Assembly: GCF_003852895.1 (NCBI RefSeq)
Contig: NZ_QUSW01000007.1
Location: 231,411-295,410 of the forward strand
Length of the DNA: 64,000 nucleotides
Source of the DNA: Piscinibacter terrae
Lineage (GTDB): Bacteria; Pseudomonadota; Gammaproteobacteria; Burkholderiales; Burkholderiaceae_C
Direction of reading: 5' to 3'
Shown: one piece after another, positions 8,765-26,894 of the stretch
How positions within the stretch are numbered: position 1 is the stretch's first letter
Layout of the letters: every line of letters begins with the position of its first letter
Position numbers and translations under genes: made by a program
The notes under the pieces: model-generated
The model's database searches: none
What the model saw: only the letters and a program-made list of their open reading frames with translations
Told to the model about the DNA's origin: nothing

Positions 8765-8775
8765 GGACTTATTTT

Positions 8776-8888
8776 ATTTCCACAACTAAGGGATTGATTG
8801 ATCGGAATCTCTTCGATCTCCACCTCAAAAGTTGTGGAAATTTGTCACAACTTACTTAGTTGCAAAATAGAACTAACAAAGCTATAGT
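8776..8888. promoter_or_regulatory. nrtR/pncA divergent control region: candidate NrtR operators overlapping a sigma70-like promoter
   Basis: Perfect 12-bp inverted repeat ATTTCCACAACT (8776-8787)/AGTTGTGGAAAT (8830-8841); palindrome CAACTtacttAGTTG (8848-8862) overlapping -35 TTGCAA (8860-8865), 17-bp spacer, -10 TATAGT (8883-8888) upstream of pncA ATG 8918. Confidence 0.45.
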
Positions 8889-8917
8889 TCAATCACACCG
8901 AACGAAAGGACAGCATC

Positions 8918-9787
8918 ATGAAGCGCAAGATCCAGCTCCTCATCATCGATCCGCAGAACGACTTCTGCGATCTGCCGGAAGCCTACCGCCCCGCAGACCC
9001 GGTGACTGGTGCGAAGGTCGCCCCCGCGCTGCCCGTGGCCGGTGCACATGCCGACATGCAGCGCACCGCCGAGCTGATCCGCCAAGGCGGCGCCGGCCTC
9101 ACCGACATCGCCATCACGCTCGACTCCCACCACCGCTTCGACATTGCGCACCCCACGTTCTGGAAGACGGGGCAGGGTGCCGCGGTCACGCCCTTCACGC
9201 AGATCACTGCCGCGCAGGTCCGCAGCGGCGAGTATCTGCCGCGTGATCCATCCGCCTTGCCGCGCACGCTGAGCTACCTGGATGCGCTGGAAGCCCGCGG
9301 CCGCTACACCCTGATGGTGTGGCCCGTTCACTGCGAGATCGGTTCCTGGGGCCACAACGTCCATGCCGATGTGCGTGCCGCCTACAACGCCTGGGAAGAA
9401 CGGCAACTGGGCGTGGTGCAGAAGGTCAACAAGGGCTCCAACCCCTGGACCGAGCACTACAGTGCCCTGCTGGCCGAAGTGCCCGATGCCGAGGACCCCG
9501 ACACGCAGCTGAACCAGGCGCTCATCGACCAGCTCGACCAGGCCGACACGCTGCTCATCACCGGTGAAGCCAGCAGCCATTGCGTGAAGGCCACCACCGA
9601 ACACATCGTGCAGAACCTGCCGGGCGGCCGGCTCGAGCGCATCGTGCTGCTCACCGACTGCATGAGCCCGGTGGGGGGCTTCGAGGCCCAGCACGCGGCC
9701 TTCCTGGCCGACATGCGCGGCAAGGGCGTGCAACTGGCCACCACGGCCGACGTGCTGCCTTCGCTGATTGCAAACGCCACCCGCTGA
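8918..9787 (+). CDS. pncA: isochorismatase-family cysteine hydrolase, probable nicotinamidase (PncA-like, unusually long at 289 aa)
   Basis: N-terminal [11 protein letters not shown] motif (catalytic Asp), conserved Lys and Cys ([11 protein letters not shown]) of the cysteine-hydrolase triad; first gene of NrtR-linked NAD salvage operon. Confidence 0.6.
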
Positions 9788-9806
9788 ACAACGAACCACA
9801 GACACC

Positions 9807-10994
9807 ATGCGTCCCGTCATCACCAGCCTGCTCGACACCGACCTCTACAAGTTCACGATGTGGCAGACCATGCTGCATCGCCATCCGCAGACGCAGGCCG
9901 AGTACACGTTCGTTTGCCGGAACCAGCCCACCTACCCGCTCGCCGAGCTGGTGGCCGAGGTGAATGAACAGCTCGACCACCTGTGCACGCTCAGCTTCAA
10001 GCCCGATGAGCTGGCATACCTGGCGGGCCTGCGCTTCATCAAGTCCGACTTCGTCGACTTCCTGCGCATCTTCCACTTCCAGCGCGAGTTCATCAGCGCA
10101 CGCGCCAACGGCGACAAGCTGGAGATCGTGGCCCGCGGTCCGCAGGTGCATGTGATGGCGTTCGAGATCTTCGTGCTCGCGATGGTCAATGAGCTGTACT
10201 TCCGCCGATTCGATCGTGAACCTGCGCTGATAGAGGGCCGCAAGCGCCTGCAGGCCAAGATCGAACAGCTTCGCGCGTTCGGCCAGGAACCGGCTCGCCG
10301 CAACCCCTTCGAATTCTTCGACTTCGGTGTGCGCCGCCGCTTCGCTGGTGACTGGCAGCGCGAAGTCGTCACCACGCTCAAGCGCGAGGTGCCGCAGTTC
10401 TTCAAGGGCACGTCCAACGTGCTGCTGGCGCGCGACCTCCAGCTCGTGCCCATCGGCACCATGGCCCACGAATATCTGCAGACCTATCAGGCCCTGGGCG
10501 TGCGGCTGCGCGATTTCCAGAAGGCGGCGCTCGAAGACTGGGTGCAGGAATACCGCGGCGACCTCGGCGTGGCGCTCACCGACGTGGTGGGCATGGACGC
10601 CTTCATCAGCGACTTCGACCTGTATTTCGCCAAGCTCTTCGACGGCCTGCGCCACGACTCCGGCGATCCGACGGTCTGGGGCGAGAAGGCACTCGCGCAC
10701 TATGCAAAGCTGCGCATCGATGCCAACACCAAGCGCCTGGTGTTCTCCGACGGGCTCGACATCGCACGCGCCATCGACCTTTACCGACACTTCGCCGATC
10801 GCACGCAACTGGGCTTCGGCATCGGCACCAACCTGAGCAACGACGTGGGCCAGACGCCACTCAACATCGTGATGAAGCTCACCCGCTGCAACGACCAGCC
10901 GGTGGCGAAGCTGTCCGACAGCCCCGGCAAGACGCTGTGCGACGACCAGACCTTCCTGGCCTACCTGCGCCAGGTCTTCAACGTCCCGGCCTGA
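9807..10994 (+). CDS. pncB: nicotinate phosphoribosyltransferase
   Basis: [20 protein letters not shown]... canonical PncB N-terminus and full-length similarity; alternative upstream ATG at 9768 overlapping pncA. Confidence 0.85.
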
Positions 10995-11004
10995 GGGCAT
11001 TGCC

Positions 11005-12705
11005 ATGCTCAAACTCACGCTGGCTCAGCTCAACTACACCGTCGGCGACATCGAGGGCAATGCCCAGAAGATGATCGACGCTGCCCAGAAGGCCGCGCGG
11101 GACGGGTCCGAGCTGGTCATCTTTTCCGAGCTGTCGCTCACGGGCTACTACCCCGGCGACTTGCTCGACGAGCCCGACTTCCTCGCTCGAGTGGACGCCG
11201 GCATCGACACCTTGCTGCAGGCGTCGCGCCAACTGCGCAACCTGCACTGGGTCATCGGCGCACCGCTGCGTCGCGACGGGCCCGGCAAGCGGTTGTCCAA
11301 CATGCTGCTGGTGCTCAGGGCGGGCGACGTCGTGCTGCGCTACGCCAAGCAACTCCTGCCCACCTACAACATCTTCGACGAGCGCCGCCACTTCGAGCCC
11401 GGGCCCGATGTGGGCCGCGTGCTGCGCATCGGCCAGACGCAGGTGGGCATGATGATCTGCGAGGACGGCTGGAACGACGGCGGCGCCGACTACGCCGTCA
11501 ACCCCTTCGAGCGCCTGCGCGATGCGGCGCCCGATTTCGTGGTGAGCATCAACGCCAGCCCCTCCAACATCGGCAAGCGCGAACAGCGGCACCAGGTGTT
11601 CGGCGCGGCCAGCAGGCGGCATGGGTTGCCGCTGGTCTACGTGAACCAGGTCGGTGGACAGGACCAGGTCATCTTCGACGGCGCTTCGTTCATCGTCGAG
11701 CCGGAGGCCGGCGTGATGCACGAGGCGCATCGCTTCGTCGAGGACGTGACGACGCTGCGCTTCGAGGACGGACACTTCAGTGCCGTCGATGGATCCGAGC
11801 TGCCCCGGCCTGCGCCGGAAGGCCTGCCCACCATGGCGTTCTATCGCGCACAGATCGTGCTCGGCCTGAAGGACTACGCACGCCGCTGCGGTTTCTCCAA
11901 GGCGGTGGTGGGATCTTCCGGCGGCATCGACAGTGCGCTGACGCTGGCCTTGGCCGTGGAGGCACTGGGGGCCGAGAACGTGGAGGCGGTGACCATGCCC
12001 TCGCGCTACTCATCGGCCGGTTCCGTGGATGACTCCGTCGCGCTGTGCCGCAACCTCGGCATTCGGCTGCACACCCACCCCATCGCTGACCTCGTGGCCG
12101 GCTACTCGGCGCAGTTCGCCGACAGCTTCCAGCAGCCTTTGCAGGGGCTGCCGCTGGAGAACCTGCAGGCACGCATCCGCGGCACGATCCTCATGGAGTT
12201 CTCCAACGCCTTCGGCCACCTCTTGCTGACCACGGGCAACAAGTCCGAGATCTCGGTGGGCTATTGCACGCTGTACGGCGACACCAACGGCGGACTCGGC
12301 CTGATCGGCGATCTCTACAAGACCGAGGTGTTCGCGCTGGCCAGGCACCTCAATGACAGTGCAGGCCGGGAGATCATTCCGGCGGCCATCATCGACAAGC
12401 CACCGTCCGCCGAACTCGCGCCGGACCAGAAGGACACCGACAGCCTGCCGCCTTATGAGGTGCTCGACGAAGTCCTCAAGATGCAGATCGAAGGCCAGGG
12501 CCTGGCCAAGGCGGAATTCGAGCAGGCGTCGGGTTTCTGCGCCAGGCTGCAGGCCAGCGATGAAGGGCGGGCGCTCATTGCCCGCGTGCGCCGCATGATC
12601 GCCCGCAACGAATACAAGCGCCGCCAGGCACCGCCCATCATCCGCGTGCGTTCGCGCGCCTTCGGCACGGGACGCCAGATGCCCATCGCCGCCAAGACCC
12701 TGTGA
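11005..12705 (+). CDS. nadE: glutamine-dependent NAD+ synthetase (nitrilase-like N-domain plus NAD synthase domain)
   Basis: 566 aa; N-terminal carbon-nitrogen hydrolase domain, C-terminal P-loop SGGIDS (VVGSSGGIDSALTLALA). Confidence 0.9.
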   Translation: MLKLTLAQLNYTVGDIEGNAQKMIDAAQKAARDGSELVIFSELSLTGYYPGDLLDEPDFLARVDAGIDTLLQASRQLRNLHWVIGAPLRRDGPGKRLSNMLLVLRAGDVVLRYAKQLLPTYNIFDERRHFEPGPDVGRVLRIGQTQVGMMICEDGWNDGGADYAVNPFERLRDAAPDFVVSINASPSNIGKREQRHQVFGAASRRHGLPLVYVNQVGGQDQVIFDGASFIVEPEAGVMHEAHRFVEDVTTLRFEDGHFSAVDGSELPRPAPEGLPTMAFYRAQIVLGLKDYARRCGFSKAVVGSSGGIDSALTLALAVEALGAENVEAVTMPSRYSSAGSVDDSVALCRNLGIRLHTHPIADLVAGYSAQFADSFQQPLQGLPLENLQARIRGTILMEFSNAFGHLLLTTGNKSEISVGYCTLYGDTNGGLGLIGDLYKTEVFALARHLNDSAGREIIPAAIIDKPPSAELAPDQKDTDSLPPYEVLDEVLKMQIEGQGLAKAEFEQASGFCARLQASDEGRALIARVRRMIARNEYKRRQAPPIIRVRSRAFGTGRQMPIAAKTL

Positions 12706-12715
12706 GGAGTCGAGC

Positions 12716-13783
12716 GTGAACACCAGCGTGAGCACCCATGACGTGGCCGTCACCATCGGCCGCTTCCAGCCCTTCCACAACGGCCACCTCGCGGTGCTGC
12801 GGCAGGCGCTGGCGGCGGCGCCCGCCTGCATCGTGGTGATCGGGTCGGCCCACCAGGCCCGCACGCCGAAGAACCCGTTCAGCTGGGAAGAGCGGGTCGA
12901 GATGATCCGGCTGGCGTTGCCGGAGCCGGATCGTGCCCGCGTGTCGTTCATTCCCGTGCGCGACTACTACGATGAATCGCGATGGTTGTCGGTGGTCCGG
13001 CGCAGCGTCGAAAGCCTGCTGGCCGAGCGCGGCATGCCCACCGCGCGTGTCGCGCTGGTGGGGCACCTGAAGGATCCGACCAGCGAATACCTTCGTGGAT
13101 TTGCGGGCTGGCATTTCAAGAACATCGACCGCGTGTCGTCCTTCGACGCGACGGCTGTTCGAGATGCCTACTTCGGCCATGCCGCCGGCGAACTCGATGC
13201 GAGCCTGGCGGCGCTGGTGAGCCAGGCACCGCCCAGCACGGTCGCCTTCCTGCGCGCGTGGGCCGAGCTGCCCTTCTTCGACGAACTGGTCCGAGAATGG
13301 GAGATGCTCAGGCGCTACAAGCAGTCGTGGGACGCAGCGCCTTATCCACCGGTGTTCGTGACGGTGGATGCCATCGTCAAGTGCAACCAGCACGTGCTGC
13401 TGATCCGGCGCGGACAGGCGCCTGGAAAAGGCTTGTTCGCGGCGCCGGGAGGCTTCATCGAGCAGCGTGAGACGACCTACCAATCCGCCTTGCGTGAGCT
13501 GGAAGAAGAGACGCACCTCAAGTTGCTGGACACCGCCATGCGCCATGCCTTGAAGGCCGCGGTGGTGTTCGACCATCCAGACCGCAGCCAGCGTGGCCGC
13601 ACCATCACCCATGCGCATTTCTTCGACCTGGGCGAGCGCGAGTTCCCCGAGGTCAGGGCGGATGACGATGCCGCGGCGGTGGAGTGGGTGCCGATCGAAC
13701 GGCTGGTCGAGATGGAGGACCGCTTCCTGGACGATCACTTCCACATGCTGGACCACTTCCTGGGCTTGACGCAGGAAGCCTGA
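12716..13783 (+). CDS. nadM: bifunctional NMN adenylyltransferase / ADP-ribose pyrophosphatase (NadM-Nudix type)
   Basis: N-terminal (H/T)xGH nucleotidyltransferase motif IGRFQPFHNGH; C-terminal Nudix box (GGFIEQRETTYQSALRELEEETHL). Confidence 0.8.
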   Translation: MNTSVSTHDVAVTIGRFQPFHNGHLAVLRQALAAAPACIVVIGSAHQARTPKNPFSWEERVEMIRLALPEPDRARVSFIPVRDYYDESRWLSVVRRSVESLLAERGMPTARVALVGHLKDPTSEYLRGFAGWHFKNIDRVSSFDATAVRDAYFGHAAGELDASLAALVSQAPPSTVAFLRAWAELPFFDELVREWEMLRRYKQSWDAAPYPPVFVTVDAIVKCNQHVLLIRRGQAPGKGLFAAPGGFIEQRETTYQSALRELEEETHLKLLDTAMRHALKAAVVFDHPDRSQRGRTITHAHFFDLGEREFPEVRADDDAAAVEWVPIERLVEMEDRFLDDHFHMLDHFLGLTQEA

Positions 13784-13787
13784 GCCT

Positions 13788-14384
13788 TCAAGCGGTCGGG
13801 TAGACCGCTTCCGTGGGCGTTTGCAATTCCCGGTTGTCGTCTTGCGCATGCTCGCGTTGCGCAGCCACGAAACCGGTCATGTCGATGACCTCCAGCAGAT
13901 CGTCATGGGCCATGCGCCGCAGCATGCTGCCGCGCAGGCCCAGCTGGATGGCGCGACGACTCTGCCGCGCGCCGCTGGGTGAGTGGTCCGGATCCCACTG
14001 CAGGCGAACCTCGGAGCCTTCCACCGCGGCTTGCCACGCTTCGCGGCTTGGATGCACGGACGGGTCGTATGCGGACTCGACGGCCTGTGCCAGCAGTTCG
14101 TCAAAGAACGGCCGCTTCAGGCGCAACGCGAGGATCATCTCCTGGCCTTCCTTGGTGCCCCATCCACAGCGGTACATCATCCACAGGAAATTGGGCTTGA
14201 TCCAGCTCATCCGCTGGAAGCTGAAGTCCGGCCCACCGAAGCGGCCATGCTCGATGGCATGGCGTGCGATGGACGGCCGGTAGGCCTGGTAGACGATCAC
14301 CGAGGTGTCGTCGAATTGGGCAAGGATGTGCCGGCCTTCCGATGGCCAGCGATGCTGTTGTTGGAGATGGTTGCTGAAATTCAT
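13788..14384 (-). CDS. DUF4291-family protein (uncharacterised; last gene of KptA/NADAR operon)
   Basis: 198-aa ORF; ATGA start/stop overlap with upstream NADAR gene (14381-14384). Confidence 0.55.
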   Translation of the reverse strand: MNFSNHLQQQHRWPSEGRHILAQFDDTSVIVYQAYRPSIARHAIEHGRFGGPDFSFQRMSWIKPNFLWMMYRCGWGTKEGQEMILALRLKRPFFDELLAQAVESAYDPSVHPSREAWQAAVEGSEVRLQWDPDHSPSGARQSRRAIQLGLRGSMLRRMAHDDLLEVIDMTGFVAAQREHAQDDNRELQTPTEAVYPTA

Positions 14385-14962
14385 TGTCGTTTCTGTTGTT
14401 CTTGTTCAATCAGGCGTTCTCGAACCTCCATGAGCGCGAAGCCCAGCAGGTTCAAGCCTTTCCACAGCAGCGGGTTCTCCGCGTGAGGCTCATCCGCCGC
14501 CGTGCCGATGCCCCAGACCTTGTCGACCGGGCTGGCTTCGACGATGACGCGGTCGCCGGTCGATTTCAGGAACTCGCCCATGGCCGCGTTCTGGGAGAAC
14601 TTGGCCAAGTTGCCCGCGACGACCAGATCGAACCGGGCGGCTTTCCATTGGACGTCGTCGAATCCCTGGACGGTACGGCCCAGCTTCTTGGCCTCATTCG
14701 GACTTGCCGCCGCGACGATTCGTTCGTGGGCCTGCGCATCGCCGAACAAGCGGGCCTTGCCAGCCATCATGAAGTGCTCGGCCGTGGTGTAGCGGGTTCC
14801 CTCCACGACGAAGGGCGCCTCGTACCACTGGCTGAACACGCTCTTGCCGATCTCCCCGCCAGGGAGCGGCCGATGACCCCAGAAGAAGAGGTACTTGGGC
14901 CGATGGCCGTGCTCGACGGCGGCGATGAGTTGTTCGATGCTGCGCACTTGCTGGCTGTTCAT
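14381..14962 (-). CDS. NADAR-domain protein (YbiA-like, DUF1768; predicted NAD/ADP-ribose-related N-glycosidase)
   Basis: Start MNSQQVRS at 14962; NADAR-like motifs (FFWGHRP..GEIGKSVFSQWYEAPF..YTTAEHFMMAGKARLF...KVWGIG). Confidence 0.7.
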   Translation of the reverse strand: MNSQQVRSIEQLIAAVEHGHRPKYLFFWGHRPLPGGEIGKSVFSQWYEAPFVVEGTRYTTAEHFMMAGKARLFGDAQAHERIVAAASPNEAKKLGRTVQGFDDVQWKAARFDLVVAGNLAKFSQNAAMGEFLKSTGDRVIVEASPVDKVWGIGTAADEPHAENPLLWKGLNLLGFALMEVRERLIEQEQQKRQ

Positions 14963-14978
14963 TCTTTTCCTCTCCTGC

Positions 14979-15539
14979 TCACACCAGCGACTGATGCCGG
15001 CTGAGATACCGCACCGGCACATGATCTGTGAGCCACACGTTGTTGTCCGATCGGTAGAAGCGATGGCCATCGGCACGCATCGCGGCAGCGTCGATGGCCA
15101 GGATGACCGGGACGCCGTAGCGCTGCCCGACCGAACGGGCGGTGCCGATGTCGGCGGTCATGTGCACGTGATGACGCTGCCGCTTGTCCAGCCCCGTGCG
15201 CATCACCGAGTCGATGAATCTCGATGCCGTGCCGTGGTACAGCACCGCCGGAGGTTCGAGTTCTTCCAGCCCGAGTTCCACGTCGATCGAGTGTCCCTGG
15301 TTGGCGCGAATGCGTGTTCCGTCCTCGCTGAAACTGAATCGTTGCTTGTCATTGCCAGCCACCACTTCGCGCAGCAGATCCAGGCTCACCGGGCGTCCGG
15401 CGATGGCGAGCTTTTGCAGCAGCTCGCCCACGTCTGTCCATCCTGCATCGTCCAGCGACAGGCCGATCTTTTCCGGTTGGTGCCTCAGCACCAGGCTGAG
15501 GAACTTGCTGATCGACACGATGTTGTGCTTGTTGGTCAT
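14979..15539 (-). CDS. kptA: RNA 2'-phosphotransferase (Tpt1/KptA family, NAD-dependent)
   Basis: Start MTNKHNIV at 15539; KptA motifs ([39 protein letters not shown]); long upstream in-frame extension of the track ORF rejected. Confidence 0.8.
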
Positions 15540-18376: not shown

Positions 18377-21238
18377 TCAGCGCAGTCCGATGCTGGTCTG
18401 CGCGCTGGTGGCAACGTCCAGCGCCCACAGCCGCCCCTGCCGGTCGAAGACGATGAGGTGGCTCTCGCTCAACCGCGCCTGCGGCAAGGATGGGGCGGGC
18501 CAGTCGATGCGCGCGCAAACACGCCCGTTGCCCATGGCGATGGCGGCCCAGTGCGTGGTGGTCTCGTCGCCGATGCCCGCCAGCAGCCACGAGCCCGCCA
18601 CGACCACGCGCAGCGGATCCCCTTCGGCCACCATCTGCGGCCAGGCGATGTTCTGCTTGCGGCCGTTGAGCATGAAGGCGAGCGTCTGCGCACCATCGGC
18701 ATCGACCTGGATCCACGCCTCGATCACGCCGCCATTCGGCGCGAGCACCTGTGTCGAGCCCGCCGAGATCGGCGAGGGCACCAGTTCGTCGCGCACGAAC
18801 AGGCGCCGCTGCGGCAGCGAGTAGCGCCACAGCGAATACTGCGCGGTCGGCAGCGCCAGGCAGACCTGCTCGACGCGCGAGTTCACCGACAGGTCGCACA
18901 CCTTGCCGGGCAGGTCGCCCACCTGCCAGAGCACTTCGTTCAGTGAACGCTGCGTGTCCAGCACGCGCAGCCGGTTGCCGCTCGCGACGGTCCAGGCGAT
19001 GCCGTCGAATTCGCGGGCGAAGTGATGCAGCTCGGCCATGCCCAGGTCGGTGACCTGCCGGTTGGCGAGGTCGAGCCGGCTGACGCGGCACACGAGGTCG
19101 CGCCGCGCCACGGCCAGCGCCATCTGCCGGCTGGGCGCGATGACGAGCTGGTCCGCGGGCACGGCGAAGCGCGACTGCACCTTGCCATGCCGGTTCACGA
19201 TGACGGCGCCTGTCTCGCCCAGCGCGAGCAGGAACTGGCCATCGTCGAGCGCCACCGCATCCAGCGGCGCGAGCTGGCCAGCGTCGGGCAGCCGGCCCTG
19301 AACGGGCGCGGCCGACTGCGAAAGCTCCTGCCGCTGGTGGGCCGGCAGCGCTGTGTTCTCCAGGTCCGCACTCAGCCAGGGGTCGTTGGCCAGGGACACG
19401 ACCCGCTGTAGATCGTTGCGGCTCAGTCCGCCCAGACCCGCGGCCTGGTCTGCCACCAGGCCAGGGGCTATCACGCGAGCGATGCCCGAGGTGCGTGCTT
19501 CCGCCTGCTTGAGTTCGAGCAAGGCCGCAGCAATGGCCTCGCGCTCGGCATGCAGTTCGGGGTCGTCGCGCAGCTCGTGCAGACGATCGGCAGATTGCGT
19601 CATGGTGTCGGGCAGTAGCACGGCCCGCTTGACCAGCGCGCGGGCGCCGAGGCGGCCGCCGGCGGCCTGCGCGTTCTCCAGCCATTGGATGGCGAGCGTC
19701 CGCTGCTCCTTCACCGGCCAGATGGCGTCGATCGCACCGAGCCAGTCTCCACGTTGTGCAAGGGCGTGCGCCCATTCCTGGCGCAGGCGGCGTGCCGGGT
19801 CGGGCCACTTGGGTTCCATCTGCAGCACGGCTGTGGCGAAGGCGTTGTCCCGCCGCGCCACGGCCAGCGCCTTGCGCCAGTCGTCAGCCAGGCAGAAGAG
19901 GCGAACGATGACGGCGGCCGGATGGTCCCATGCCAACGCCAGTTCGGCCGCCTGCTTGAAGCGGCCATGCTTCTCCAGGTAGTCCAGCGCTTCCTGCCGC
20001 GCATGCAGCAGCTCGGCCAGCACGAACACCGCTTCGTCGATGCGCCCCTCGCGGTCGAGCTTCTCGAAGCTGCGGCGGTAGAGCTGCCGCAGGTGGGACT
20101 CCAGATCCGATCCGAGGTTGATGCTGGTGTGGTAGGTCGGCCCCGAACTCAGGCCGAGGTCGCTGCGTGCGCCCGGCGTGCCGAAGGCCTGGCCGAGGGA
20201 CTGGTTGTCTCCACCGAGCGGAATGGCGTGGCGCAGGGCCTCGTCGAGCTGGCCCGACTCGAACAGATCGAGCATCTTGCGGACGTAGGCTGCCTGGCGC
20301 TGGCCCAGCAACCGGGCGATCTGGGAGGTGATCGCCAGCCGCGCGAGCCAGTCGCGCCACATCTGGCGAGGGTTGCGAGGGCGGTGCCGTGGCGGGATGG
20401 TGCCGGTGGGTGTGCCGGCAGGGCGTGCAGCGGCCACCGGCTGAGCCGGGGCGCCTGCCGATGTCCAACTCGTCGGGGCGCGTGAGCTCCTGGCCAGGAA
20501 GAAGCCAATGGCGAAGAGCACGATCGTCCACAGCGGCATGGCGTCGACACCGGTGCTGGAGACTCCGGCGATGACGGCAATGACGACGAGAACCCACAGC
20601 ACCAGCCGCAGGGCATGGCCTGGGCGGGAGCTTGACTGCTGAGATCGCGACGAGCCGGATATCCCGTCGGATTCCCGTGATTGCGCCATCGCCCGCAGGA
20701 ATTCCCGGTGCTCGTCGCTGGCTGGCGGGACCTTGCCGTCGAAGATGGCACGCAGGTCCTGCACTGGAACCGGCGTGACGAATACAGATGGCGGCAGAGC
20801 TTCGCGGCAGTCGAAGGTGTCGTGCAATGCGACGGACGCGGTGGCCAGCCACTCGGCCGGATCCAGAGGCTGCCCGTCGTCGAAGTGCATCGACAGGCAT
20901 TGCGCCCCGTGCACCACATGGAAGTCCGCCGCAGGCAAGGCCGCGAGCTCGGCGTCAGCCAGAGGTGCGGAGCACAGGGTGCGTCCCTGCCGGACGAGTG
21001 CCCAGCCTTCCAACGCATCGCACGACTGCTCGAACGGTTCGGCAAAGCGCAGCAGGTCGCCTTGCGCAAAGCGGTGGGCCGACGCACCGGGACGCCATGC
21101 GGCCAGCAGGCGCCGGGCCCGCTGCGTTTCGTCGAACCAGGAGACTGGGAACCACAGGGCGCAGACCTTCTGCTGCCCCTGCAACAGCGGCTGCCGAACC
21201 TCGGCGGGCCTCGTGAAGATGGGATCGTGTGGTGTCAT
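18377..21238 (-). CDS. 953-aa protein with central predicted transmembrane segment(s) and large C-terminal repeat region; candidate third component of a MoxR-vWA-beta-propeller (bpX-like) system
   Basis: Long uninterrupted ORF; ATGA overlap with upstream gene at 21235-21238; hydrophobic segments LRLVLWVLVVIAVIAGV and LWTIVLFAIGFFL; no similarity to housekeeping families recognised. Confidence 0.55.
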   Translation of the reverse strand: MTPHDPIFTRPAEVRQPLLQGQQKVCALWFPVSWFDETQRARRLLAAWRPGASAHRFAQGDLLRFAEPFEQSCDALEGWALVRQGRTLCSAPLADAELAALPAADFHVVHGAQCLSMHFDDGQPLDPAEWLATASVALHDTFDCREALPPSVFVTPVPVQDLRAIFDGKVPPASDEHREFLRAMAQSRESDGISGSSRSQQSSSRPGHALRLVLWVLVVIAVIAGVSSTGVDAMPLWTIVLFAIGFFLARSSRAPTSWTSAGAPAQPVAAARPAGTPTGTIPPRHRPRNPRQMWRDWLARLAITSQIARLLGQRQAAYVRKMLDLFESGQLDEALRHAIPLGGDNQSLGQAFGTPGARSDLGLSSGPTYHTSINLGSDLESHLRQLYRRSFEKLDREGRIDEAVFVLAELLHARQEALDYLEKHGRFKQAAELALAWDHPAAVIVRLFCLADDWRKALAVARRDNAFATAVLQMEPKWPDPARRLRQEWAHALAQRGDWLGAIDAIWPVKEQRTLAIQWLENAQAAGGRLGARALVKRAVLLPDTMTQSADRLHELRDDPELHAEREAIAAALLELKQAEARTSGIARVIAPGLVADQAAGLGGLSRNDLQRVVSLANDPWLSADLENTALPAHQRQELSQSAAPVQGRLPDAGQLAPLDAVALDDGQFLLALGETGAVIVNRHGKVQSRFAVPADQLVIAPSRQMALAVARRDLVCRVSRLDLANRQVTDLGMAELHHFAREFDGIAWTVASGNRLRVLDTQRSLNEVLWQVGDLPGKVCDLSVNSRVEQVCLALPTAQYSLWRYSLPQRRLFVRDELVPSPISAGSTQVLAPNGGVIEAWIQVDADGAQTLAFMLNGRKQNIAWPQMVAEGDPLRVVVAGSWLLAGIGDETTTHWAAIAMGNGRVCARIDWPAPSLPQARLSESHLIVFDRQGRLWALDVATSAQTSIGLR

Positions 21239-23085
21239 GCGTTGTCGCCCGTCTGCACATCGGCCTGCACCACGAGGCGGGCCTGCCGCCGCGAGATGTC
21301 GAAGACGTGCAGCTCACGGGTGCGGGTGGTCAGCGCCATGACGCCGCTGTTGGCGCAGACGGTCATCCGTTCGATGGGGGCGCCGGTGCTGTAGGTGAGC
21401 TCTGTTTCGCCCGAGGTCTGAAGCGAGATGTCTCGACCGTTGGCCGACTTCACCACCAGTGCGCAGCGCTGTGTCGGCGCGCTCTTGAAGAGCCCCGCCA
21501 CCGTGGCTCCGGCCGGCAGGCGGACTTGCCACGACAGGCTGGGAAGCTCCTCGCCTGCCTCGACATCGCTGACCAGCCAGCTTTCCTGCGAGTCCTCCAG
21601 CGCGCTTCGCACGGCGCAGGCACCCAGGCCGCTGCGCTGGTCGGTGCTGCCGACGAGGAAGACAGGCGCCGAGGCATCGAGGGCGTAGGGGATGCGGTGA
21701 TCCAGCTTTTCGCGCCCGTGGTCGGCGAGCGCCCGGATGGCGACGCTGTGCCCATCCGAGCAGGCGTAGACCACGCCGCGATCGCCGACGCGGGCCATGG
21801 CGAGCACGTTCTTGTCCATCAACATGGGACCGCGCGCGCGATGCTTCGAGTCGGCCATCCACAGCACCAGGTGCCCCGAAGCGTCCAGTACGTACAGGCG
21901 TTGCATGCCGGCGTTGCGAAGCCACACGCACGGCAGCAACCCAGCGCGACCCGGCGGTGCGTTGAACTCATCGGCGGAAGGGCGCGTCTGTATGCCGAGG
22001 CCCGACATCTGCCAGAACAGCAGGTGCGATGCCGGACTGGGATAGGCTTGCCGGGACATCACCATGCCCAGGGTCTTGCCCGCGAACGCAGCGGCCAGAG
22101 GCTCGGCGCGGACAGGTAACTGCTCCCGTCGAGGCGGCTTCGGGCCTTGCCTGCGGGACGACACGGTTTGGAAAACGAGCACGCCATGGCCATCCAGCGC
22201 CATGAGAGCCACCTTCGCGCCAGTGCTCGACAGGATCGGCGCAACGGTCAACGAGAAGCGCTCCGAACGCAAGCTGCGCACATCCGGTGGGACTTCCTTC
22301 TCGAAGCGGCCCTTGAGCAACTCCGGTGTGCGGCGCGGCGACGGCAGTGGCAGGTGGAGTCCACGTGCCATTGCGCCGGCAGACAGCTTCAATTCAAGGG
22401 ATTCGCCGTCCAGCGACCGCCGCAGCTGGACCGCATGGGAAGGCGGTGGTGTCGCACGCTGGATGGCCTCGGTGTCGTGCGCGACCAGCCAGCGCTCGCC
22501 GATGCCGTTGGCGTGCTGGTCCAACCAGCGCATCCATTCGTCCCAGTGTTCAGGCCGAACGCTGGCGAACGTGCGCGCGTTCAGCAATCGCTTGAGATCG
22601 GCCGCTGAAGCCGCTTCATGCCACTGGCCTGGCTGTTGCAGGCTGCCCCAGCGCATGACGCCGCCTGCCTCGACGGCACGGCGAGAGAGAAGAATCCATA
22701 GGGCCAGATGCGCCAGGCGCGGCGCACCGAGCTGCATGGGGCCGCAATCGAACAAGGCCACGATGAGGCTGTCGGCCTGGTGCGCTCGCGGCCGCGGCGC
22801 GAGAAAGAGGTGCTCGCCGCCTGCAGCGCGGCGCAGGAATTCATCGGGCAACTCCGACGCCAGCAGCCATTCACTGGACAACAGCCGCTCGTAGGAGCCA
22901 CGCCGGCGCAGGTCGTCCACGCCGTCCGGTTCGGCCGCATCGCCCGGGCGCCGGCCGCGGAACCGGCCCAGCCACGGATGCATCCGCAGCAGAAGCTCGC
23001 CGACCTGGGCGGCGAGGTCGGCATCGAACCAGCTCAGCCAAGGGCGCCAGGATTCCAGCGCGTCGGGCAAGCGAAGGCTGCTCAT
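21235..23085 (-). CDS. 616-aa protein with N-terminal vWA-like domain (degenerate MIDAS) and C-terminal beta-propeller-like repeats
   Basis: Start MSSLRLPD at 23085 overlaps upstream stop (ATGA); segment LIVALFDCGPMQLG resembles vWA beta-strand/MIDAS region with DxSxS degraded; repeated hydrophobic-D/S-G-H motifs (LYVLDASGHLVLW, VVYACSDGHSVAIR, LHVFDISRRQ). Confidence 0.5.
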   Translation of the reverse strand: MSSLRLPDALESWRPWLSWFDADLAAQVGELLLRMHPWLGRFRGRRPGDAAEPDGVDDLRRRGSYERLLSSEWLLASELPDEFLRRAAGGEHLFLAPRPRAHQADSLIVALFDCGPMQLGAPRLAHLALWILLSRRAVEAGGVMRWGSLQQPGQWHEAASAADLKRLLNARTFASVRPEHWDEWMRWLDQHANGIGERWLVAHDTEAIQRATPPPSHAVQLRRSLDGESLELKLSAGAMARGLHLPLPSPRRTPELLKGRFEKEVPPDVRSLRSERFSLTVAPILSSTGAKVALMALDGHGVLVFQTVSSRRQGPKPPRREQLPVRAEPLAAAFAGKTLGMVMSRQAYPSPASHLLFWQMSGLGIQTRPSADEFNAPPGRAGLLPCVWLRNAGMQRLYVLDASGHLVLWMADSKHRARGPMLMDKNVLAMARVGDRGVVYACSDGHSVAIRALADHGREKLDHRIPYALDASAPVFLVGSTDQRSGLGACAVRSALEDSQESWLVSDVEAGEELPSLSWQVRLPAGATVAGLFKSAPTQRCALVVKSANGRDISLQTSGETELTYSTGAPIERMTVCANSGVMALTTRTRELHVFDISRRQARLVVQADVQTGDNA

Positions 23086-23573
23086 GCGGCAGCCCCGGGC
23101 TGGTCGTCCCACAGTGCTGCGATTCGTGCGAGAAGGGCTGCGGAGACGGGCAATTGGCGATCCATCGGCACCAGGACCGATGGATCAGGCCAGAGCAGCA
23201 GCGGCTTGCGCTGGTGGCGCCGGTCAAGTGCGATCGCCAGCAGATCGCAGGCAACGTCCGGGCGCCGCAAGGTGGGCAGCCACAGGTTGGGCGCTTCGGG
23301 GCAGGGCGCGGCGTAGGCTGCGCCATCGATCCAGGGCAACGCGGCTGTCGCGCCGCTGACGACCATCACGTCGCGGCTGGCCGTGGCGTGCAGGCGTGCC
23401 TGCTCTTCGGCACTCATGAGTTGCAGGCGTGCATGCAGCCGGCGCGCCGCGGGGCCGAAGGCCACGACCGCGCGTGCGGGCGCGGGCTCAGGCTGGCCGG
23501 CCCAGCGCCAGTCGAATCGTCCAGCGAGGCTCACGCGGCAACCGCAATCAGCGCAGCCAGCTTCACGCGCCAT
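23082..23573 (-). CDS. small hypothetical protein (163 aa as drawn; start uncertain) between MoxR ATPase and vWA-like gene
   Basis: ORF in operon context; overlaps AAA gene 3' end by 43 nt if the 23573 start is used; internal alternative start MSAEEQ at 23417. Confidence 0.35.
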   Translation of the reverse strand: MAREAGCADCGCRVSLAGRFDWRWAGQPEPAPARAVVAFGPAARRLHARLQLMSAEEQARLHATASRDVMVVSGATAALPWIDGAAYAAPCPEAPNLWLPTLRRPDVACDLLAIALDRRHQRKPLLLWPDPSVLVPMDRQLPVSAALLARIAALWDDQPGAAA

Positions 23574-24652
23574 TCGGCCAGATCGGCCGGCAGCGTGTCG
23601 GCATCGAAGTTCGCGTCGATCTCACGCAGCAAGGCTTCGACTTCCAGGCGGCGTCCTTCGACGGAACCGGCCAGCAGACCTTGGGCCGATTCCTTGAGAC
23701 GTGCGGCCCTGGACAGCGGCTGCAAGGTGGCTTGCTCCACGGCGCTGAGCAGGTTCGGATGCGCCGCATCGGCGAACAGTTCGCGCAGGACCTCGCGTGC
23801 GCTGTGCTGGGCCTCCTGCGTCGGCAGCACATACAGCAGCGGCCAGAGGTCTGCCTGCGTGGCTTGCACGCGACCCGCCAGCACGGCGGCCGCCGCGATG
23901 AGCCGCTGCGCCTTCACGATGCGGCGGTCCGAGAGCTGGATGCCGGCCTGGCGCAATTGACGGATCGCGCTGGCCAGTGCCGGGCGGGCGATGTCCAGGT
24001 TCGCGAGCTTCACCGCGTGACACAGCACGTCCAGGTGCGCCATGCCGGCCTGCGGCTCGACGCGCTGCTGGTCCGATTGCCAGCCGCCAGCCAGCATCGC
24101 TTCGAGTTGGTGATCGGGCACGGCCTCGATGAACAGATGCAGCAGGAAGCGGTCGCCAAAGGCGGCGAGTGCTTCGTCTTCCGGCAAGCCGTTGGCAGCA
24201 CCCACGCACACGCGCAGCGGGCACTGGATTTGTGTGTGGCCGCGGCGAAAGCGCCGCTCGTTCAGCACACCCAGGAGCGTGTTCAGGATGGCCGTGGAAC
24301 CGAGGAACACCTCGTCGAGAAACGCCACCTCGGCCTCCGGCAGCATGCCGGTGACGTCGGTCTCGACGGTGCCCTCGCGCAGCTTCTTCAGGTCCACCGG
24401 ACCGAAGAGCTCCGACGGTTCGGTGAAACGTCCGAGCAGGTATTCGAAGTAGCGCCCACCCATGGCTTGCGCGACGCGGCGAACCACCGCGCTCTTGGCG
24501 GTGCCAGGCGGCCCGATCACCAGCAGGTGCTCCTGGGCGACAGCGGCCAGCACGATCAGCTCGGCCAGTTGATCGCGCCCGACCAGGCCGGCCGTGGCTG
24601 CGCGGATGCCCTGCCGGACTTGGCTGGCGGAGTCTTGGAGAGAGAGGGTCAT
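23531..24652 (-). CDS. MoxR-like AAA+ ATPase
   Basis: 373 aa; Walker A LLVIGPPGTAKS, Walker B AFLDEVF, sensor/arginine finger region; MoxR/RavA-type single AAA+ module with C-terminal helical domain. Confidence 0.85.
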   Translation of the reverse strand: MTLSLQDSASQVRQGIRAATAGLVGRDQLAELIVLAAVAQEHLLVIGPPGTAKSAVVRRVAQAMGGRYFEYLLGRFTEPSELFGPVDLKKLREGTVETDVTGMLPEAEVAFLDEVFLGSTAILNTLLGVLNERRFRRGHTQIQCPLRVCVGAANGLPEDEALAAFGDRFLLHLFIEAVPDHQLEAMLAGGWQSDQQRVEPQAGMAHLDVLCHAVKLANLDIARPALASAIRQLRQAGIQLSDRRIVKAQRLIAAAAVLAGRVQATQADLWPLLYVLPTQEAQHSAREVLRELFADAAHPNLLSAVEQATLQPLSRAARLKESAQGLLAGSVEGRRLEVEALLREIDANFDADTLPADLAEWRVKLAALIAVAA

Positions 24653-24713: not shown

Positions 24714-25082
24714 TCAGGCGCCGACCGTGAGGTCCTTCAGCAAGCTGCGCAATTTCTTGCGGCCGTCGCTGTTCGTCGAGCGCCAGGCCTTGAGTGCCAG
24801 CGCGAGAAACTGCTGTTCGGCCTGGTTCAGGCCCGCGGCTTCGCGCTCTTCATCAAGCCAGCCCACCGGCTTCTTGCAGTGCTGCTCGATCTGCCGGGCG
24901 AGCTTGTCGCCGATGGGTCGGGATGACTTGATCTGGCTCCACATGCTGGGCGAAATCTCCAGGCTCGTGGCGAAGGTTTGCTCCAGCCCCTTGGGAGCGG
25001 CGCCATTGGCCACGGCCGACTCGGCATAGGCCTGGAAGAGCGCCAGCACGTTGCGGCGCCGATGGATGGTGATGTTGCTCAC
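24714..25082 (-). CDS. XRE/lambda-repressor-like HTH DNA-binding protein (122 aa), probable regulator of the downstream MoxR operon
   Basis: HTH segment TFATSLEISPSMWSQIKSSRPIGDKLARQIE; 60-nt gap to AAA gene, same strand. Confidence 0.55.
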   Translation of the reverse strand: MSNITIHRRRNVLALFQAYAESAVANGAAPKGLEQTFATSLEISPSMWSQIKSSRPIGDKLARQIEQHCKKPVGWLDEEREAAGLNQAEQQFLALALKAWRSTNSDGRKKLRSLLKDLTVGA

Positions 25083-25632: not shown

Positions 25633-25708
25633 GCGGATGTAGCTCAGCAGGCAGAGCGGGACCACGCCATGGTTCAGGCCACGAGTTCGATTCTCGTCAT
25701 CCGCTCCA
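25633..25708 (+). tRNA. tRNA-Gly(GCC)-like, non-canonical C33
   Basis: GCGGATG/CATCCGC acceptor, D arm TAGCTCAGCAGGCAGAGC, anticodon loop ACGCCAT (C at position 33), T arm ACGAG-TTCGATT-CTCGT, CCA encoded. Confidence 0.6.
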
Positions 25709-25869
25709 CGATTCACTTCGGGTGTGTCCTTGCACTCCGTGGCCGCACTTGCATGGTGTTGGCGGCGCGGGATGTGCGCGGTCGCAGGCCTGAGGCTCCG
25801 TGCAGCGAGACACCACGTCCGACGGGACGCTCGCGCTTGGGCACAGCCGAAGTGGATTGCCATGAATTG

Positions 25870-25944
25870 GTCGCGTTCGTCTAACGGTCAGGACGCTGGG
25901 CTTTCAATCCGGCAATGCGGGTTCGACTCCCGCACGCGATACCA
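25870..25944 (+). tRNA. tRNA-Glu(TTC)
   Basis: Acceptor GTCGCGT/ACGCGAT (G1-U72), TTCGTCTAACGGTCAGGAC Glu-type D arm, anticodon loop CTTTCAA, T arm GCGGG-TTCGACT-CCCGC, CCA. Confidence 0.65.
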
Positions 25945-26036
25945 GCAAACAGAAGCCATCGTCGAGCTCACGCTTCGATGGCGGAAATCGGCCGCAACGA
26001 TTGGGCGGCACCGGAACCCGTCACCGGAAAATATTT

Positions 26037-26112
26037 GCTTCGTTAACTCAGTGGTCAGAGTGCCGGCCTGTCTAGTCGGAAGCCGCGGGTTCGAATCCCG
26101 CACGAGGCGCCA
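26037..26112 (+). tRNA. tRNA-Asp(GTC)
   Basis: Anticodon stem-loop CCGGC-CTGTCTA-GTCGG (U37 unusual), T arm GCGGG-TTCGAAT-CCCGC, 3' ACGAGGCGCCA. Confidence 0.65.
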
Positions 26113-26120
26113 GTCAATTT

Positions 26121-26196
26121 GCCGCGGTAGCTCAATGGGTAGAGCGCCGGCCTGAAGAGCCGGGCGTAGGAGGTTCGAACCCTTCCCGCGGCACCA
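26121..26196 (+). tRNA. tRNA-Phe(GAA)
   Basis: GCCGCGG acceptor, anticodon stem-loop CCGGC-CTGAAGA-GCCGG, T arm GGAGG-TTCGAAC-CCTTC, CCA. Confidence 0.8.
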
Positions 26197-26200
26197 GTTT

Positions 26201-26277
26201 GTCTCGTTAGCTCAATGGATGAGAGCGCCGGTCTACGAAGCCGGAGGTTGCATGTTCGAGTCATGCACGAGGCGCCA
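26201..26277 (+). tRNA. tRNA-Arg(ACG)
   Basis: Anticodon stem-loop CCGGT-CTACGAA-GCCGG, T arm GCATG-TTCGAGT-CATGC, 3' end identical to the Asp gene (ACGAGGCGCCA). Confidence 0.7.
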
Positions 26278-26285
26278 ATTCTCCT

Positions 26286-26372
26286 GGGTGTGTGGCAGAG
26301 AGGCCGATTGCAGCTGCCTGTAAAGCAGCCTCCCGAAAGGACACGGTGGTTCGAATCCATCCGCACCCACCA
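26286..26372 (+). tRNA. tRNA-Tyr(GTA), class II (long variable arm)
   Basis: Acceptor GGGTGTG/CGCACCC, anticodon GCTGC-CTGTAAA-GCAGC, variable arm TCC-CGAAA-GGA, T arm GGTGG-TTCGAAT-CCATC, ACCA. Confidence 0.75.
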
Positions 26373-26378
26373 GACAAA

Positions 26379-26454
26379 TCCGGGCTAGCTCAATTGGCAG
26401 AGCAGCGGCCTCCAAAGCCGAAGGTTCGCGGTTCGACCCCGTGGTCCGGAGCCA
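26379..26454 (+). tRNA. tRNA-Trp(CCA)
   Basis: Anticodon loop CTCCAAA, D arm TAGCTCAATTGGCAGAGC, T arm CGCGG-TTCGACC-CCGTG, GCCA. Confidence 0.75.
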
Positions 26455-26461
26455 GATTCTT

Positions 26462-26547
26462 CTCGATGTAGCCAAGTGGTCGAAGGCGACTGATTGCAAA
26501 TCAGTTGGCGCAAGCCCACGTCCGTTCGAATCGGACCGTCGAGTCCA
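26462..26547 (+). tRNA. class II (long variable arm, 3-bp D stem) tRNA with Cys anticodon GCA; allo-tRNA / SelC-like non-canonical tRNA
   Basis: Acceptor CTCGATG/CGTCGAG, D arm GCC-AAGTGGTCGAA-GGC, anticodon ACTGA-TTGCAAA-TCAGT, 14-nt variable arm GGC-GCAA-GCC, T arm GTCCG-TTCGAAT-CGGAC, TCCA. Confidence 0.55.
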
Positions 26548-26554
26548 GCTTTGT

Positions 26555-26630
26555 TTCCCGATAGCTCAATGGGTAGAGCGCCCGGCTGTTAACCGGGAGG
26601 TTCTTGGTTCGAGACCAAGTCGGGGAGCCA
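26555..26630 (+). tRNA. tRNA-Asn(GTT)
   Basis: Anticodon CCCGG-CTGTTAA-CCGGG, T arm CTTGG-TTCGAGA-CCAAG, GCCA. Confidence 0.8.
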
Positions 26631-26634
26631 GTTT

Positions 26635-26709
26635 GCCCGTGTAGCTCAGTGGTAGAGCACTCGCTTGATAAGCGAGAGGTCGTTGGTTCGAGCCCAACCG
26701 CGAGTACCA
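26635..26709 (+). tRNA. tRNA-Ile(GAT) with one acceptor-stem mismatch (C3-A70)
   Basis: D arm TAGCTCAGTGGTAGAGC, anticodon CTCGC-TTGATAA-GCGAG, T arm GTTGG-TTCGAGC-CCAAC, ACCA. Confidence 0.65.
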
Positions 26710-26718
26710 ATGGTCAGT

Positions 26719-26794
26719 CTCCGTGTAGCGCAGCTGGGAGCGCACGTGCCTTGGGAGCACGGGGTCGCAGGTTCGAACCCTGCCGCGGAGACCA
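26719..26794 (+). tRNA. tRNA-Pro(GGG)
   Basis: Acceptor CTCCGTG/CGCGGAG (C1-G72), anticodon CGTGC-CTTGGGA-GCACG, T arm GCAGG-TTCGAAC-CCTGC, ACCA. Confidence 0.75.
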
Positions 26795-26820
26795 ACTTCT
26801 TTCGATGCATGTGTTTGGGT

Positions 26821-26894
26821 GTGGCCGTAGCTCAATGGCAGAGCCATGGATTGTGGATCCGTTGATGTCGGTTCGACTCCGACCGGTCACCCCC
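26821..26894 (+). tRNA. tRNA-His(GTG) lacking encoded G-1 and CCA
   Basis: Acceptor GTGGCCG/CGGTCAC, anticodon ATGGA-TTGTGGA-TCCGT, T arm GTCGG-TTCGACT-CCGAC, discriminator C followed by CCCA rather than CCA; -1 position is T. Confidence 0.6.

Follow-up and report, generated by a model that had tools for sequence, protein, structure and literature searches.

Can a bacterial tRNA-Cys carry the long variable arm of a class II tRNA while the rest of the molecule remains canonical? The question is raised by an 86-nucleotide (nt) gene at 26462..26547 (+) in a 64,000-nt stretch of Piscinibacter terrae DNA (contig NZ_QUSW01000007.1, positions 231,411 to 295,410), which we call the window. To our knowledge, the textbook rule is that a long variable arm in bacteria is confined to Leu, Ser, Tyr and Sec tRNAs. 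The gene encodes a tRNA-Cys(GCA) with a class II-type body and a 7/5 architecture, that is, an acceptor stem of 7 base pairs (bp) and a T stem of 5 bp, as supported by ARAGORN, the Rfam tRNA model RF00005 and covariation within a family of relatives. A first-pass annotation had recognized a class II-type tRNA with a cysteine anticodon, had labelled it allo-tRNA or SelC-like, and had suggested mis-charging with serine or selenocysteine and recoding of UGU/UGC. A full-text literature search, incomplete in its coverage, found no description of a 7/5 class II tRNA-Cys.

ARAGORN calls tRNA-Cys(gca) on the plus strand at these coordinates, with a length of 86 nt and the anticodon at position 35. RF00005 matches the gene over the full length of the model (1-71) with an E-value of 1.5e-10 over 4 kb. 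Its score of 55.9 bits, for a gathering score of 29, is mid-range among the 18 tRNAs of the array in which the gene lies, and the Rfam tRNA model scores above the other models of its clan. In the RF00005 alignment, GCA occupies positions 34-36 of the loop UUGCAAA with posterior probabilities of about 1, and the ‘cg’ of the D loop and 11 nt of the variable region are treated as insertions. The covariance-model check proposed in the first-pass annotation thus keeps the GCA register and does not prefer another anticodon register. With ARAGORN and Rfam agreeing, the gene is a real tRNA in the Cys register.

The acceptor stem pairs CTCGATG (26462..26468) with CGTCGAG (26537-26543), so that the first pair is C1:G72. 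U8 and A9 lead into the D arm, GCC / A13 AGTGGTCGA A22 / GGC, which is followed by G26 (26469..26488) and comprises a 3-bp stem, an A13.A22 mismatch, G15, G18G19 and a two-base ‘CG’ insertion at 20a/20b. The anticodon arm ACTGA-TTGCAAA-TCAGT (26489..26505) places GCA at 26496-26498 and has A36 A37 A38. The variable region TGGCGCAAGCCCAC (26506..26519) is 14 nt long and consists of one unpaired nt (U), a 3-bp stem GGC/GCC, a GCAA tetraloop and a 3-nt tail CAC ending in C48; folded alone, it adopts.(((....)))... at -4.2 kcal/mol. The T arm GTCCG-TTCGAAT-CGGAC (26520..26536) has a 5-bp stem, and the discriminator U73 precedes an encoded CCA (26544..26547). A variable stem-loop longer than about 10 nt, together with the 3-bp D stem, the non-Watson-Crick 13:22 pair and the enlarged D loop, marks the molecule as class II. 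The elements first described for this gene, namely the 3-bp D stem GCC...GGC, the 14-nt arm GGC-GCAA-GCC, the 86-nt length and the loop TTGCAAA, are all present in the sequence at 26462..26547.

Whether these stems are maintained by selection was judged from 32 distinct family members aligned with MAFFT, in which the 7/5 cloverleaf and the 3-bp variable-arm stem were scored. Pairing was found in 97.3% of cells, as against 66% in shuffles and 28-45% with slid partners, and none of 500 shuffles reached the observed value. Compensatory changes on both sides occur in 20 of the 23 pairs: all seven pairs of the acceptor stem covary (99.6% paired), as do four of five in the anticodon stem, four of five in the T stem (99.4% paired, no bulge) and all three in the variable-arm stem (90.6% paired). 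Selection acts on every stem, the variable arm included. The same alignment was used to score the 8/4 register of allo-tRNA and selC* tRNA. The eighth acceptor pair that this register needs, 8:65, forms in only 4/32 members and fails in 28/32, whereas the fifth T-stem pair, 49:65, forms in 32/32 and covaries (GC 20, AU 7, CG 4, GU 1). The 8/4 register is thereby ruled out, and the architecture of the long-arm tRNA-Cys is the canonical 7/5.

Relatives were sought with structural patterns because BLAST with a single tRNA is too insensitive: the 86-nt tRNA alone retrieved only two plasmid and three phage records. The first pattern combined a Cys-type D arm (CCAAG...AAGG fixed), a GCA loop, a long gap and a T loop, and 0.00 chance matches to it are expected in the shuffled window. 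Among species-representative genomes it found 69 loci, about 58 of which are tRNA-Cys(GCA) genes of 84-90 nt. These long Cys genes belong mostly to Burkholderiales (Rhizobacter, Rubrivivax, Roseateles, Piscinibacter, Polaromonas, Variovorax, Pelomonas, Aquabacterium and Ramlibacter), and most of them lie among many other tRNAs. At least 53 distinct long-arm tRNA-Cys sequences pass strict stem checks. The nearest arrays, picked on overall similarity and not on the Cys gene, are on the megaplasmids of Methylibium petroleiphilum PM1, Variovorax sp. WDL1, Polaromonas sp. P1-6 and Burkholderia sp. M701, and all four hold a tRNA-Cys(GCA) of 85-87 nt; the long form is present in four of the five Burkholderiales plasmid arrays selected without regard to Cys. 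Arrays reduced to Cys and His on Roseateles chromosomes still retain the long Cys gene, as do arrays of two to six tRNAs. As controls, the plasmid arrays of Pseudomonas, Mycobacterium and Priestia have ordinary Cys tRNAs of 72-75 nt, and the chromosomal tRNA-Cys of E. coli and Neisseria is class I. The long-arm trait is lineage-specific. Both forms meet in Variovorax sp. WDL1, where plasmid 2 (L225) bears a 41-tRNA array with class I Cys and plasmid 3 (L002) bears at least 27 tRNAs with long-arm Cys; the two arrays, on separate replicons, form a natural comparison system.

The same pattern found 24 loci in viral contigs, with 30-48% GC and on contigs of up to 385 kb. A second viral pattern left the D arm free (TGCAA...GTTCGAATC...TCCA); about 20 of its 87 Cys matches are truly long-armed, adding further distinct sequences with varied D arms. 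Similar long-arm genes are thus present in unrelated phages as well. In the phage members L087 and L091 the D loop is of the class I type and the variable region is 21 nt long. Most other matches to the second pattern are 78-nt phage tRNA-Cys genes, which were caught through a TGCAA at the junction of the D stem and position 26. These 78-nt genes (L106-L222) are very abundant in viral contigs and have a Tyr-like D arm (TGGCAGAGNGGCCCAATGCA), a 6-nt variable region and U73, which suggests that Tyr and Cys bodies interconvert in phages. Archaeal matches of the scan (L022, L036 and others, from Methanosarcinales and Woesearchaeota) were left out, since they are not class II and appear to be intron-containing class I tRNA-Cys. 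In L022, L036, L059 and L065 the insertion, probably an intron, follows the anticodon loop, and in L022, L036 and L059 a cysS gene, for cysteinyl-tRNA synthetase (CysRS), directly adjoins the tRNA gene.

Which synthetase would charge such a molecule? Identity elements were counted over distinct sequences that pass the strict stem checks. U73 and C48 were no part of the first search pattern, in which D-arm bases 11-15 and 21-24 were fixed, and GCA is present by construction. All 53 long-arm Cys sequences have U73 and C48, and 48/53 have UA at 8-9; the 1:72 pair is CG in 35, GC in 14, AU in three and UA in one, and the variable region of 12-17 nt has a stem of 3 bp (34) or 4 bp (14) and a 3′ tail of 3 nt (33). 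The array tRNA-Tyr (n = 23) have A73 in 23/23, C48 in 16/23, UG at 8-9 in 16/23 and a GC first pair in 23/23, with a variable region of 11-16 nt, a 3-bp stem (15) and a 3-nt tail (16). For tRNA-Leu (n = 33), A73, U48 and UG at 8-9 are each found in 33/33, the first pair is CG in 23 and GC in 10, and a variable region of 12-18 nt carries a 3-5-bp stem and a tail of 1-2 nt. For tRNA-Ser (n = 44), position 73 is G in 35 and U in six, C48 occurs in 40/44, UG at 8-9 in 42/44 and a GC first pair in 44/44, and the variable region of 16-23 nt has a 5-7-bp stem and a tail of 1-2 nt. The arrays therefore largely follow canonical discriminator rules, and the arm geometry of the long-arm tRNA-Cys is that of array tRNA-Tyr and not that of Ser or Leu.

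The major determinants of CysRS are U73 and the GCA anticodon (PMC9976931), and the long-arm tRNA-Cys carries both, U73 and G34 C35 A36. According to established identity rules, C35 and U73 should exclude tyrosyl-tRNA synthetase (TyrRS), and U73 should exclude leucyl-tRNA synthetase. On the side of seryl-tRNA synthetase (SerRS), the short arm and the lack of a Ser-type GGA start of the acceptor stem argue, at the level of sequence, against recognition. Precedent comes from selC* tRNA-Cys, in which a long arm, U73 and a GCA or UCA anticodon are found together and which is cysteinylated by CysRS variants (PMC5389517). It is also relevant that the long-arm gene is the only Cys tRNA of an array with one tRNA for each of 18 amino acids, which supports a Cys role.

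These observations make it probable that the gene encodes a normally decoding tRNA-Cys, charged by CysRS, with a class II body bearing a Tyr-type long arm. The host CysRS would most likely recognize U73 and GCA and charge the tRNA with cysteine, and UGU/UGC would then be decoded as cysteine, as usual. Class II tRNAs commonly accommodate such an arm by two extra D-loop bases, here 20a/20b, and CysRS probably tolerates the arm and does not use it as an identity signal. The gene takes the Cys place in a horizontally mobile L-type array of 18 members, one per amino acid, and the whole set likely supplies spare tRNAs under translational stress or after damage to the housekeeping tRNAs. That CysRS charges the tRNA, that it is expressed, that it serves as a backup and that the arm brings any benefit are inferences.

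Several observations weigh against this view. The commonest first pair of tRNA-Cys is G1:C72. Here and in 35/53 relatives it is C1:G72, and in Variovorax it is A1:U72, and therefore charging could be inefficient; the CP1 domain of CysRS reads the 1:72 pair, and a CysRS of Desulfomonile needed CP1 changes for A1:U72 (PMC5389517). The C1:G72 (or A1:U72) first pair is the main uncertainty for charging by CysRS. Of little bearing is the G15:G48 Levitt pair, an E. coli/Haemophilus-specific determinant reported in few species (PMC9976931), in place of which the gene has G15:C48, with C48 in 53/53 relatives. Furthermore, U73 occurs in 6/44 array tRNA-Ser, so that U73 alone cannot rule out SerRS, and the constancy of the D arm among scan-derived members is partly by construction, as the pattern fixed CCAAG...AAGG. 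Scans for promoters and terminators around the array did no better than shuffles and gave it no convincing promoter; the sigma54 consensus was found only before the Rsr/RtcB operon of the adjoining RNA-repair locus and not before the array. Finally, the single-sequence cloverleaf, at -26.2 kcal/mol, is not the minimum free energy fold (-31.8 kcal/mol). The tRNA cloverleaf often differs from the thermodynamic optimum, and this caveat is outweighed by the comparative evidence of the family, which supports the cloverleaf.

Four other explanations deserve consideration. If the long arm recruited SerRS, serine could be inserted at UGU/UGC, or the Ser-tRNA could be converted to Cys or Sec. The molecule has a class II body, and recognition by SerRS depends chiefly on the long arm, not on the anticodon (PMC7609411); the six array tRNA-Ser with U73, a D arm up to 90% identical to that of array tRNA-Ser, the single change from GCU to GCA, and a Ser-bodied tRNA with an Asn anticodon in a related array (L003) all point the same way. 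We nevertheless hold serylation to be improbable, since the arm has 3-4 bp in 48/53 sequences versus 5-7 bp in Ser, with a 3-nt tail versus 1-2 nt, the acceptor stem does not have the GGA start present in nearly all listed array tRNA-Ser, and the invariant U73 fits CysRS and is not needed by SerRS. Conversion of E. coli tRNA-Tyr to Ser identity needed a longer arm, which also counts against it. Of the SerRS identity elements, G73 with a long arm, the tRNA has neither the G73 discriminator nor an arm of Ser-type length. With E. coli CysRS, SerRS, SelA and SelB as tblastn queries, no match was obtained in the 64-kb window or in the bacterial and viral array loci, the only CysRS matches lying beside the archaeal, apparently intron-containing tRNA-Cys genes. 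Pfam scans of the called open reading frames (ORFs) of the window, which left out 38705-39079, 53423-53698, 58949-59290, 61734-62606, 62617-63777 and two weakly supported ORFs at 1276-1932, found no such enzymes either. No Pfam or NCBIfam match among the scanned ORFs indicates SepCysS or PSTK, for which no specific search was made. The mis-charging with Ser or Sec and the recoding of UGU/UGC that had been proposed are thus probably wrong, given U73 in 53/53, the GCA anticodon and a short, Tyr-like arm.

About as doubtful as serylation is a non-translational role, in which the tRNA-like RNA would be a decoy or sponge for tRNA-targeting nucleases, or a source of fragments signalling to RtcR. The array adjoins a locus with RtcR, RtcB, RtcA, Rsr and Y RNAs, a sponge role of array tRNAs has been suggested (PMC8421152), and tRNA arrays have been called putative anti-defence systems (PMC12803027). 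On the other hand, the anticodon, U73, CCA, U33, A37, G18G19, the T loop and C48 are conserved as in a working decoder, and to lure a tRNA-Cys-specific nuclease, a decoy should copy the class I shape of the host tRNA and not depart from it. A decaying tRNA-Tyr or tRNA-Ser paralogue whose anticodon drifted to GCA is far less plausible still. GUA and GCU are each one substitution away from GCA, the arm is Tyr-like and the D arm of a phage tRNA-Tyr differs by one base; but a pseudogene is hard to reconcile with 53 distinct sequences, 97% pairing, many compensatory changes and invariant U73, C48 and GCA, or with the retention of the gene even in arrays of two tRNAs. Least credible of all, with next to no probability, is membership of the tRNA-Sec-like allo-tRNA or selC* tRNA-Cys groups, which are 8/4 or 9/3. 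The long variable arm, and U73 with GCA as in selC* tRNA-Cys, would suit it. Against it stand the pairing counts (8:65 in 4/32; 49:65 in 32/32 and covarying), the lack of an A51a bulge and of neighbouring selB*/cysS* or Sec machinery, and the hosts, which are aerobic Burkholderiales and not the anaerobes reported for selC*. The allo-tRNA label therefore does not fit this 7/5 molecule, which has U73 and not G73, and the SelC-like label fails likewise, as the architecture is not 8/4 and homologues of SelA, SelB, CysRS and SerRS are absent from the window and array loci by tblastn.

How a tRNA-Cys might have come by such a body was approached through pairwise identity, computed without the variable region and with a masked anticodon. 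The D region is about equally close to array Ser (at most 0.90 identity) and class I Cys (at most 0.85), and for the rest of the body identity is about 0.6 whichever isotype is compared; we claim no origin because pairwise identity is uninformative here. The D arm equals that of the class I Cys of Priestia, Ignavibacteria and Aeromonas phage avDM12 (L031, L105 and avDM12) plus the two-base ‘CG’, and is one base from that of the tRNA-Tyr of phage PM2. There are three candidate routes: insertion of an arm into tRNA-Cys, a tRNA-Tyr with U35C and A73U, or a tRNA-Ser(GCU) with U36A, G73U and a shortened arm. A tentative proposal, to which we give a low probability, is that mobile elements have repeatedly turned a class I isotype into class II, and that the result was kept because its shape hides the element's tRNA-Cys from a nuclease of the host or of a competitor, or from another factor, that recognizes ordinary tRNA-Cys, while CysRS still charges it. 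Its form would be either a Tyr scaffold reassigned by U35C and A73U or a tRNA-Cys with a grafted Tyr-type arm. The long-arm Asn and Thr tRNAs of phages and arrays suggest an extension of this idea to other isotypes, and gain of an arm may be a wider habit of mobile-element tRNAs. The cases in question are an 85-nt long-arm tRNA-Thr(UGU) with U73 beside the long Cys gene (L056 3111-3195) and long-arm tRNA-Asn(GUU) of 82-83 nt in the T4-like phages PM2 and avDM12 (L223 1755-1836; L224 546-628).

Other remoulded tRNAs were seen in the arrays. The Polaromonas plasmid array (L003 2856-2940) has an 85-nt Ser body with a GGAAGAT acceptor, G73, a 17-nt arm and the Asn anticodon GUU; it shares the array with a normal tRNA-Asn and is a candidate natural Asn-to-Ser mistranslator. 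A Caldimonas metagenome-assembled genome (L033 3046-3132) has an 87-nt Tyr body with A73, a Tyr-type arm and the anticodon UUA; this array tRNA is a candidate ochre suppressor. tRNAs of the amber type (CUA) are present in L010 and L064, and L045 has one of the opal type (UCA). The tRNAs of L003 (G73) and L033 (A73), cases of single-step anticodon remoulding, keep the parental discriminator; the Cys family is uniformly U73.

The array itself holds 18 tRNA genes on one strand within 2.8 kb (25633..28408, +; ARAGORN, Rfam), one per amino acid and without Ala and Thr. The location in a tRNA array and the unusual character of the gene are both borne out. The nearest relative loci, from Rubrivivax, Piscinibacter and Pseudaquabacterium, share 77-80% DNA identity with it. 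Directly 3′ of the array is an HNH endonuclease gene (28460..29041, +; Pfam HNH_5/HNH), homologues of which lie beside arrays in 36 loci and are annotated in plasmid arrays. Divergent from the array is an ORF of 122 amino acids (aa) (24714..25082, -), for which tblastn found homologues in 32 array-flanking loci, those of the Methylibium, Variovorax and Polaromonas plasmids among them. It has no Pfam or NCBIfam match and is a possible array regulator; homology to TrcR, the cyanobacterial array repressor, is not claimed, as TrcR is a ribbon-helix-helix protein restricted to cyanobacteria. Linkage to HNH and rtcB is known for L-arrays, which spread horizontally, are normally silent and are induced by translational stress in Anabaena (PMC8421152), and arrays have been proposed as anti-defence devices (PMC12803027). 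The context of the P. terrae array matches that of published L-type arrays.

Beyond the HNH gene extends a complete RNA-repair locus under RtcR control (29100..37832, on both strands; Pfam, Rfam and a sigma54 pattern). RtcR (29100-30716, -) is divergent from a sigma54-like site with one mismatch (30851-30866, +), and Pfam identifies the further proteins as Band-7 (31431-32570), Ro60/TROVE-vWA, or Rsr (32597-34192), RtcB (34711-35934), RlaP (35966-36793) and RtcA (36765-37832). Between Rsr and RtcB, Rfam finds three Y-RNA-like elements (34345-34689), namely a YrlA of 81.1 bits at 34557-34689, a weaker YrlA at 34445-34545 and a YrlB-like element at 34345-34418. RtcR, Ro60, RtcB and Band-7 recur beside related (Sphaerotilaceae) arrays, each in 6-8 of the 8-kb loci. 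A degenerate tRNA-like element at 31054-31121 (+) scores 34.8 bits with the Rfam tRNA model, has a shortened anticodon loop and is not called by ARAGORN. It follows the sigma54-like site by about 190 nt, precedes the Band-7 gene, and is possibly a tRNA-like leader of the repair operon.

Upstream of the array is a MoxR-vWA-beta-propeller ternary conflict system (18377-24652, -), which comprises a bpMoxR AAA+ protein (23531-24652), a 625-aa protein without a family match and a 953-aa bpX6 protein; unlike HNH and Rtc, it was not found beside related arrays. Within the array, between tRNA-Gln and tRNA-Val, a 191-aa ORF (27743-28318, +) has a partial match to RNA ligase 1 (RLIG1); its DNA resembles mycobacteriophage RNA ligase genes, and the ORF has no counterpart in the related loci. 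An NAD gene cluster (8072-15076) encodes an NrtR-like Nudix regulator, a nicotinamidase-like protein, NAPRTase, NAD synthase and NMNAT-Nudix; DUF4291 and a NADAR-family protein come next, and upstream of the Methylibium plasmid array, too, there is a NADAR gene. The gene for a 726-aa EF-G-like paralogue (5401-7581, +) has transport and NAD genes around it and precedes the array by about 18 kb. With genes for maltose transport, LamB, the EF-G paralogue, NAD salvage, malic enzyme and glycoside hydrolases in the window, the region looks chromosomal or chromid-like.

The known exceptions to the long-arm rule, allo-tRNA and selC* tRNA-Cys, also depart from the 7/5 acceptor/T rule. A widespread and strongly conserved 7/5 tRNA-Cys with a Tyr-type long arm would show that the boundary between class I and class II can be crossed in nature with the rest of the tRNA undisturbed, that CysRS identity (U73 and GCA) is probably compatible with a class II body, and that mobile elements and phages are a reservoir of re-engineered tRNAs. 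It would offer a system for studying how synthetases exclude or tolerate a long arm, and whether mobile elements disguise the structure of their tRNAs as a counter to tRNA-targeting toxins. The family would also provide natural scaffolds for orthogonal tRNA design or, if serylated, a natural Cys-to-Ser mistranslator.

Compared with known systems, the array resembles L-type arrays (Tran et al. 2016, PMC4758250; Santamaria-Gomez et al. 2021, PMC8421152) in being dense and one-stranded, in its horizontal spread over megaplasmids and chromosomes, where many genera have the same cassette, and in its linkage to HNH and rtcB; with 18 genes it falls just below the 20-gene threshold of Tran et al. 2016 (PMC4758250). 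The structure of tRNA-Cys is unmentioned in these two papers. The tRNA itself differs from tRNA-Sec (UCA, G73, an acceptor branch of 13 bp with 8/5) in its GCA anticodon, U73 and 7/5 architecture. With the allo-tRNAs (Mukai et al. 2017) it shares a long variable arm, an anticodon outside Ser, Leu and Tyr, and occurrence in gene clusters, but neither their 8/4 or 9/3 architecture, by which the allo-tRNA and selC* families are defined at the acceptor and T stems (PMC5389517), nor their SerRS elements (G73). The selC* tRNA-Cys (Mukai et al. 2017, PMC5389517) is likewise a natural long-arm tRNA-Cys with U73 and GCA. It is, however, an 8/4 mimic of tRNA-Sec with an A51a bulge, linked to selB*/cysS* and Sec machinery in anaerobes, whereas the tRNA described here is 7/5, has no such neighbours in the window or array loci, and belongs to mobile arrays of aerobic Burkholderiales.

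The closest likenesses are to two ordinary bacterial tRNAs. Class I tRNA-Cys (E. coli cysT; Priestia, Neisseria, avDM12) agrees in GCA, U73, the 7/5 architecture and A36A37A38, and in Priestia, Ignavibacteria and avDM12 the D arm U8-A9-GCC-A13...A22-GGC with G15 is identical bar the two inserted bases. It differs in a variable region of 4-5 nt, in place of a structured one of 12-17 nt, in the lack of 20a/b, and in its G1:C72 pair and chromosomal Gly-Cys-Leu locus, where the long-arm form has mostly C1:G72 and resides in mobile arrays. From bacterial tRNA-Tyr the long-arm tRNA-Cys differs in C35, U73 and A9/A13 versus U35, A73 and G9/G13, and in a mostly C1:G72 first pair versus the invariant G1:C72 of array Tyr; given what is known of Tyr identity, TyrRS should not accept it as a substrate. 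It shares with tRNA-Tyr the layout of the arm (1 nt, a 3-bp stem, a loop and a 3-nt tail ending in C48), the 9-nt D loop AGNGGYCGA, and an anticodon that differs only at position 35.

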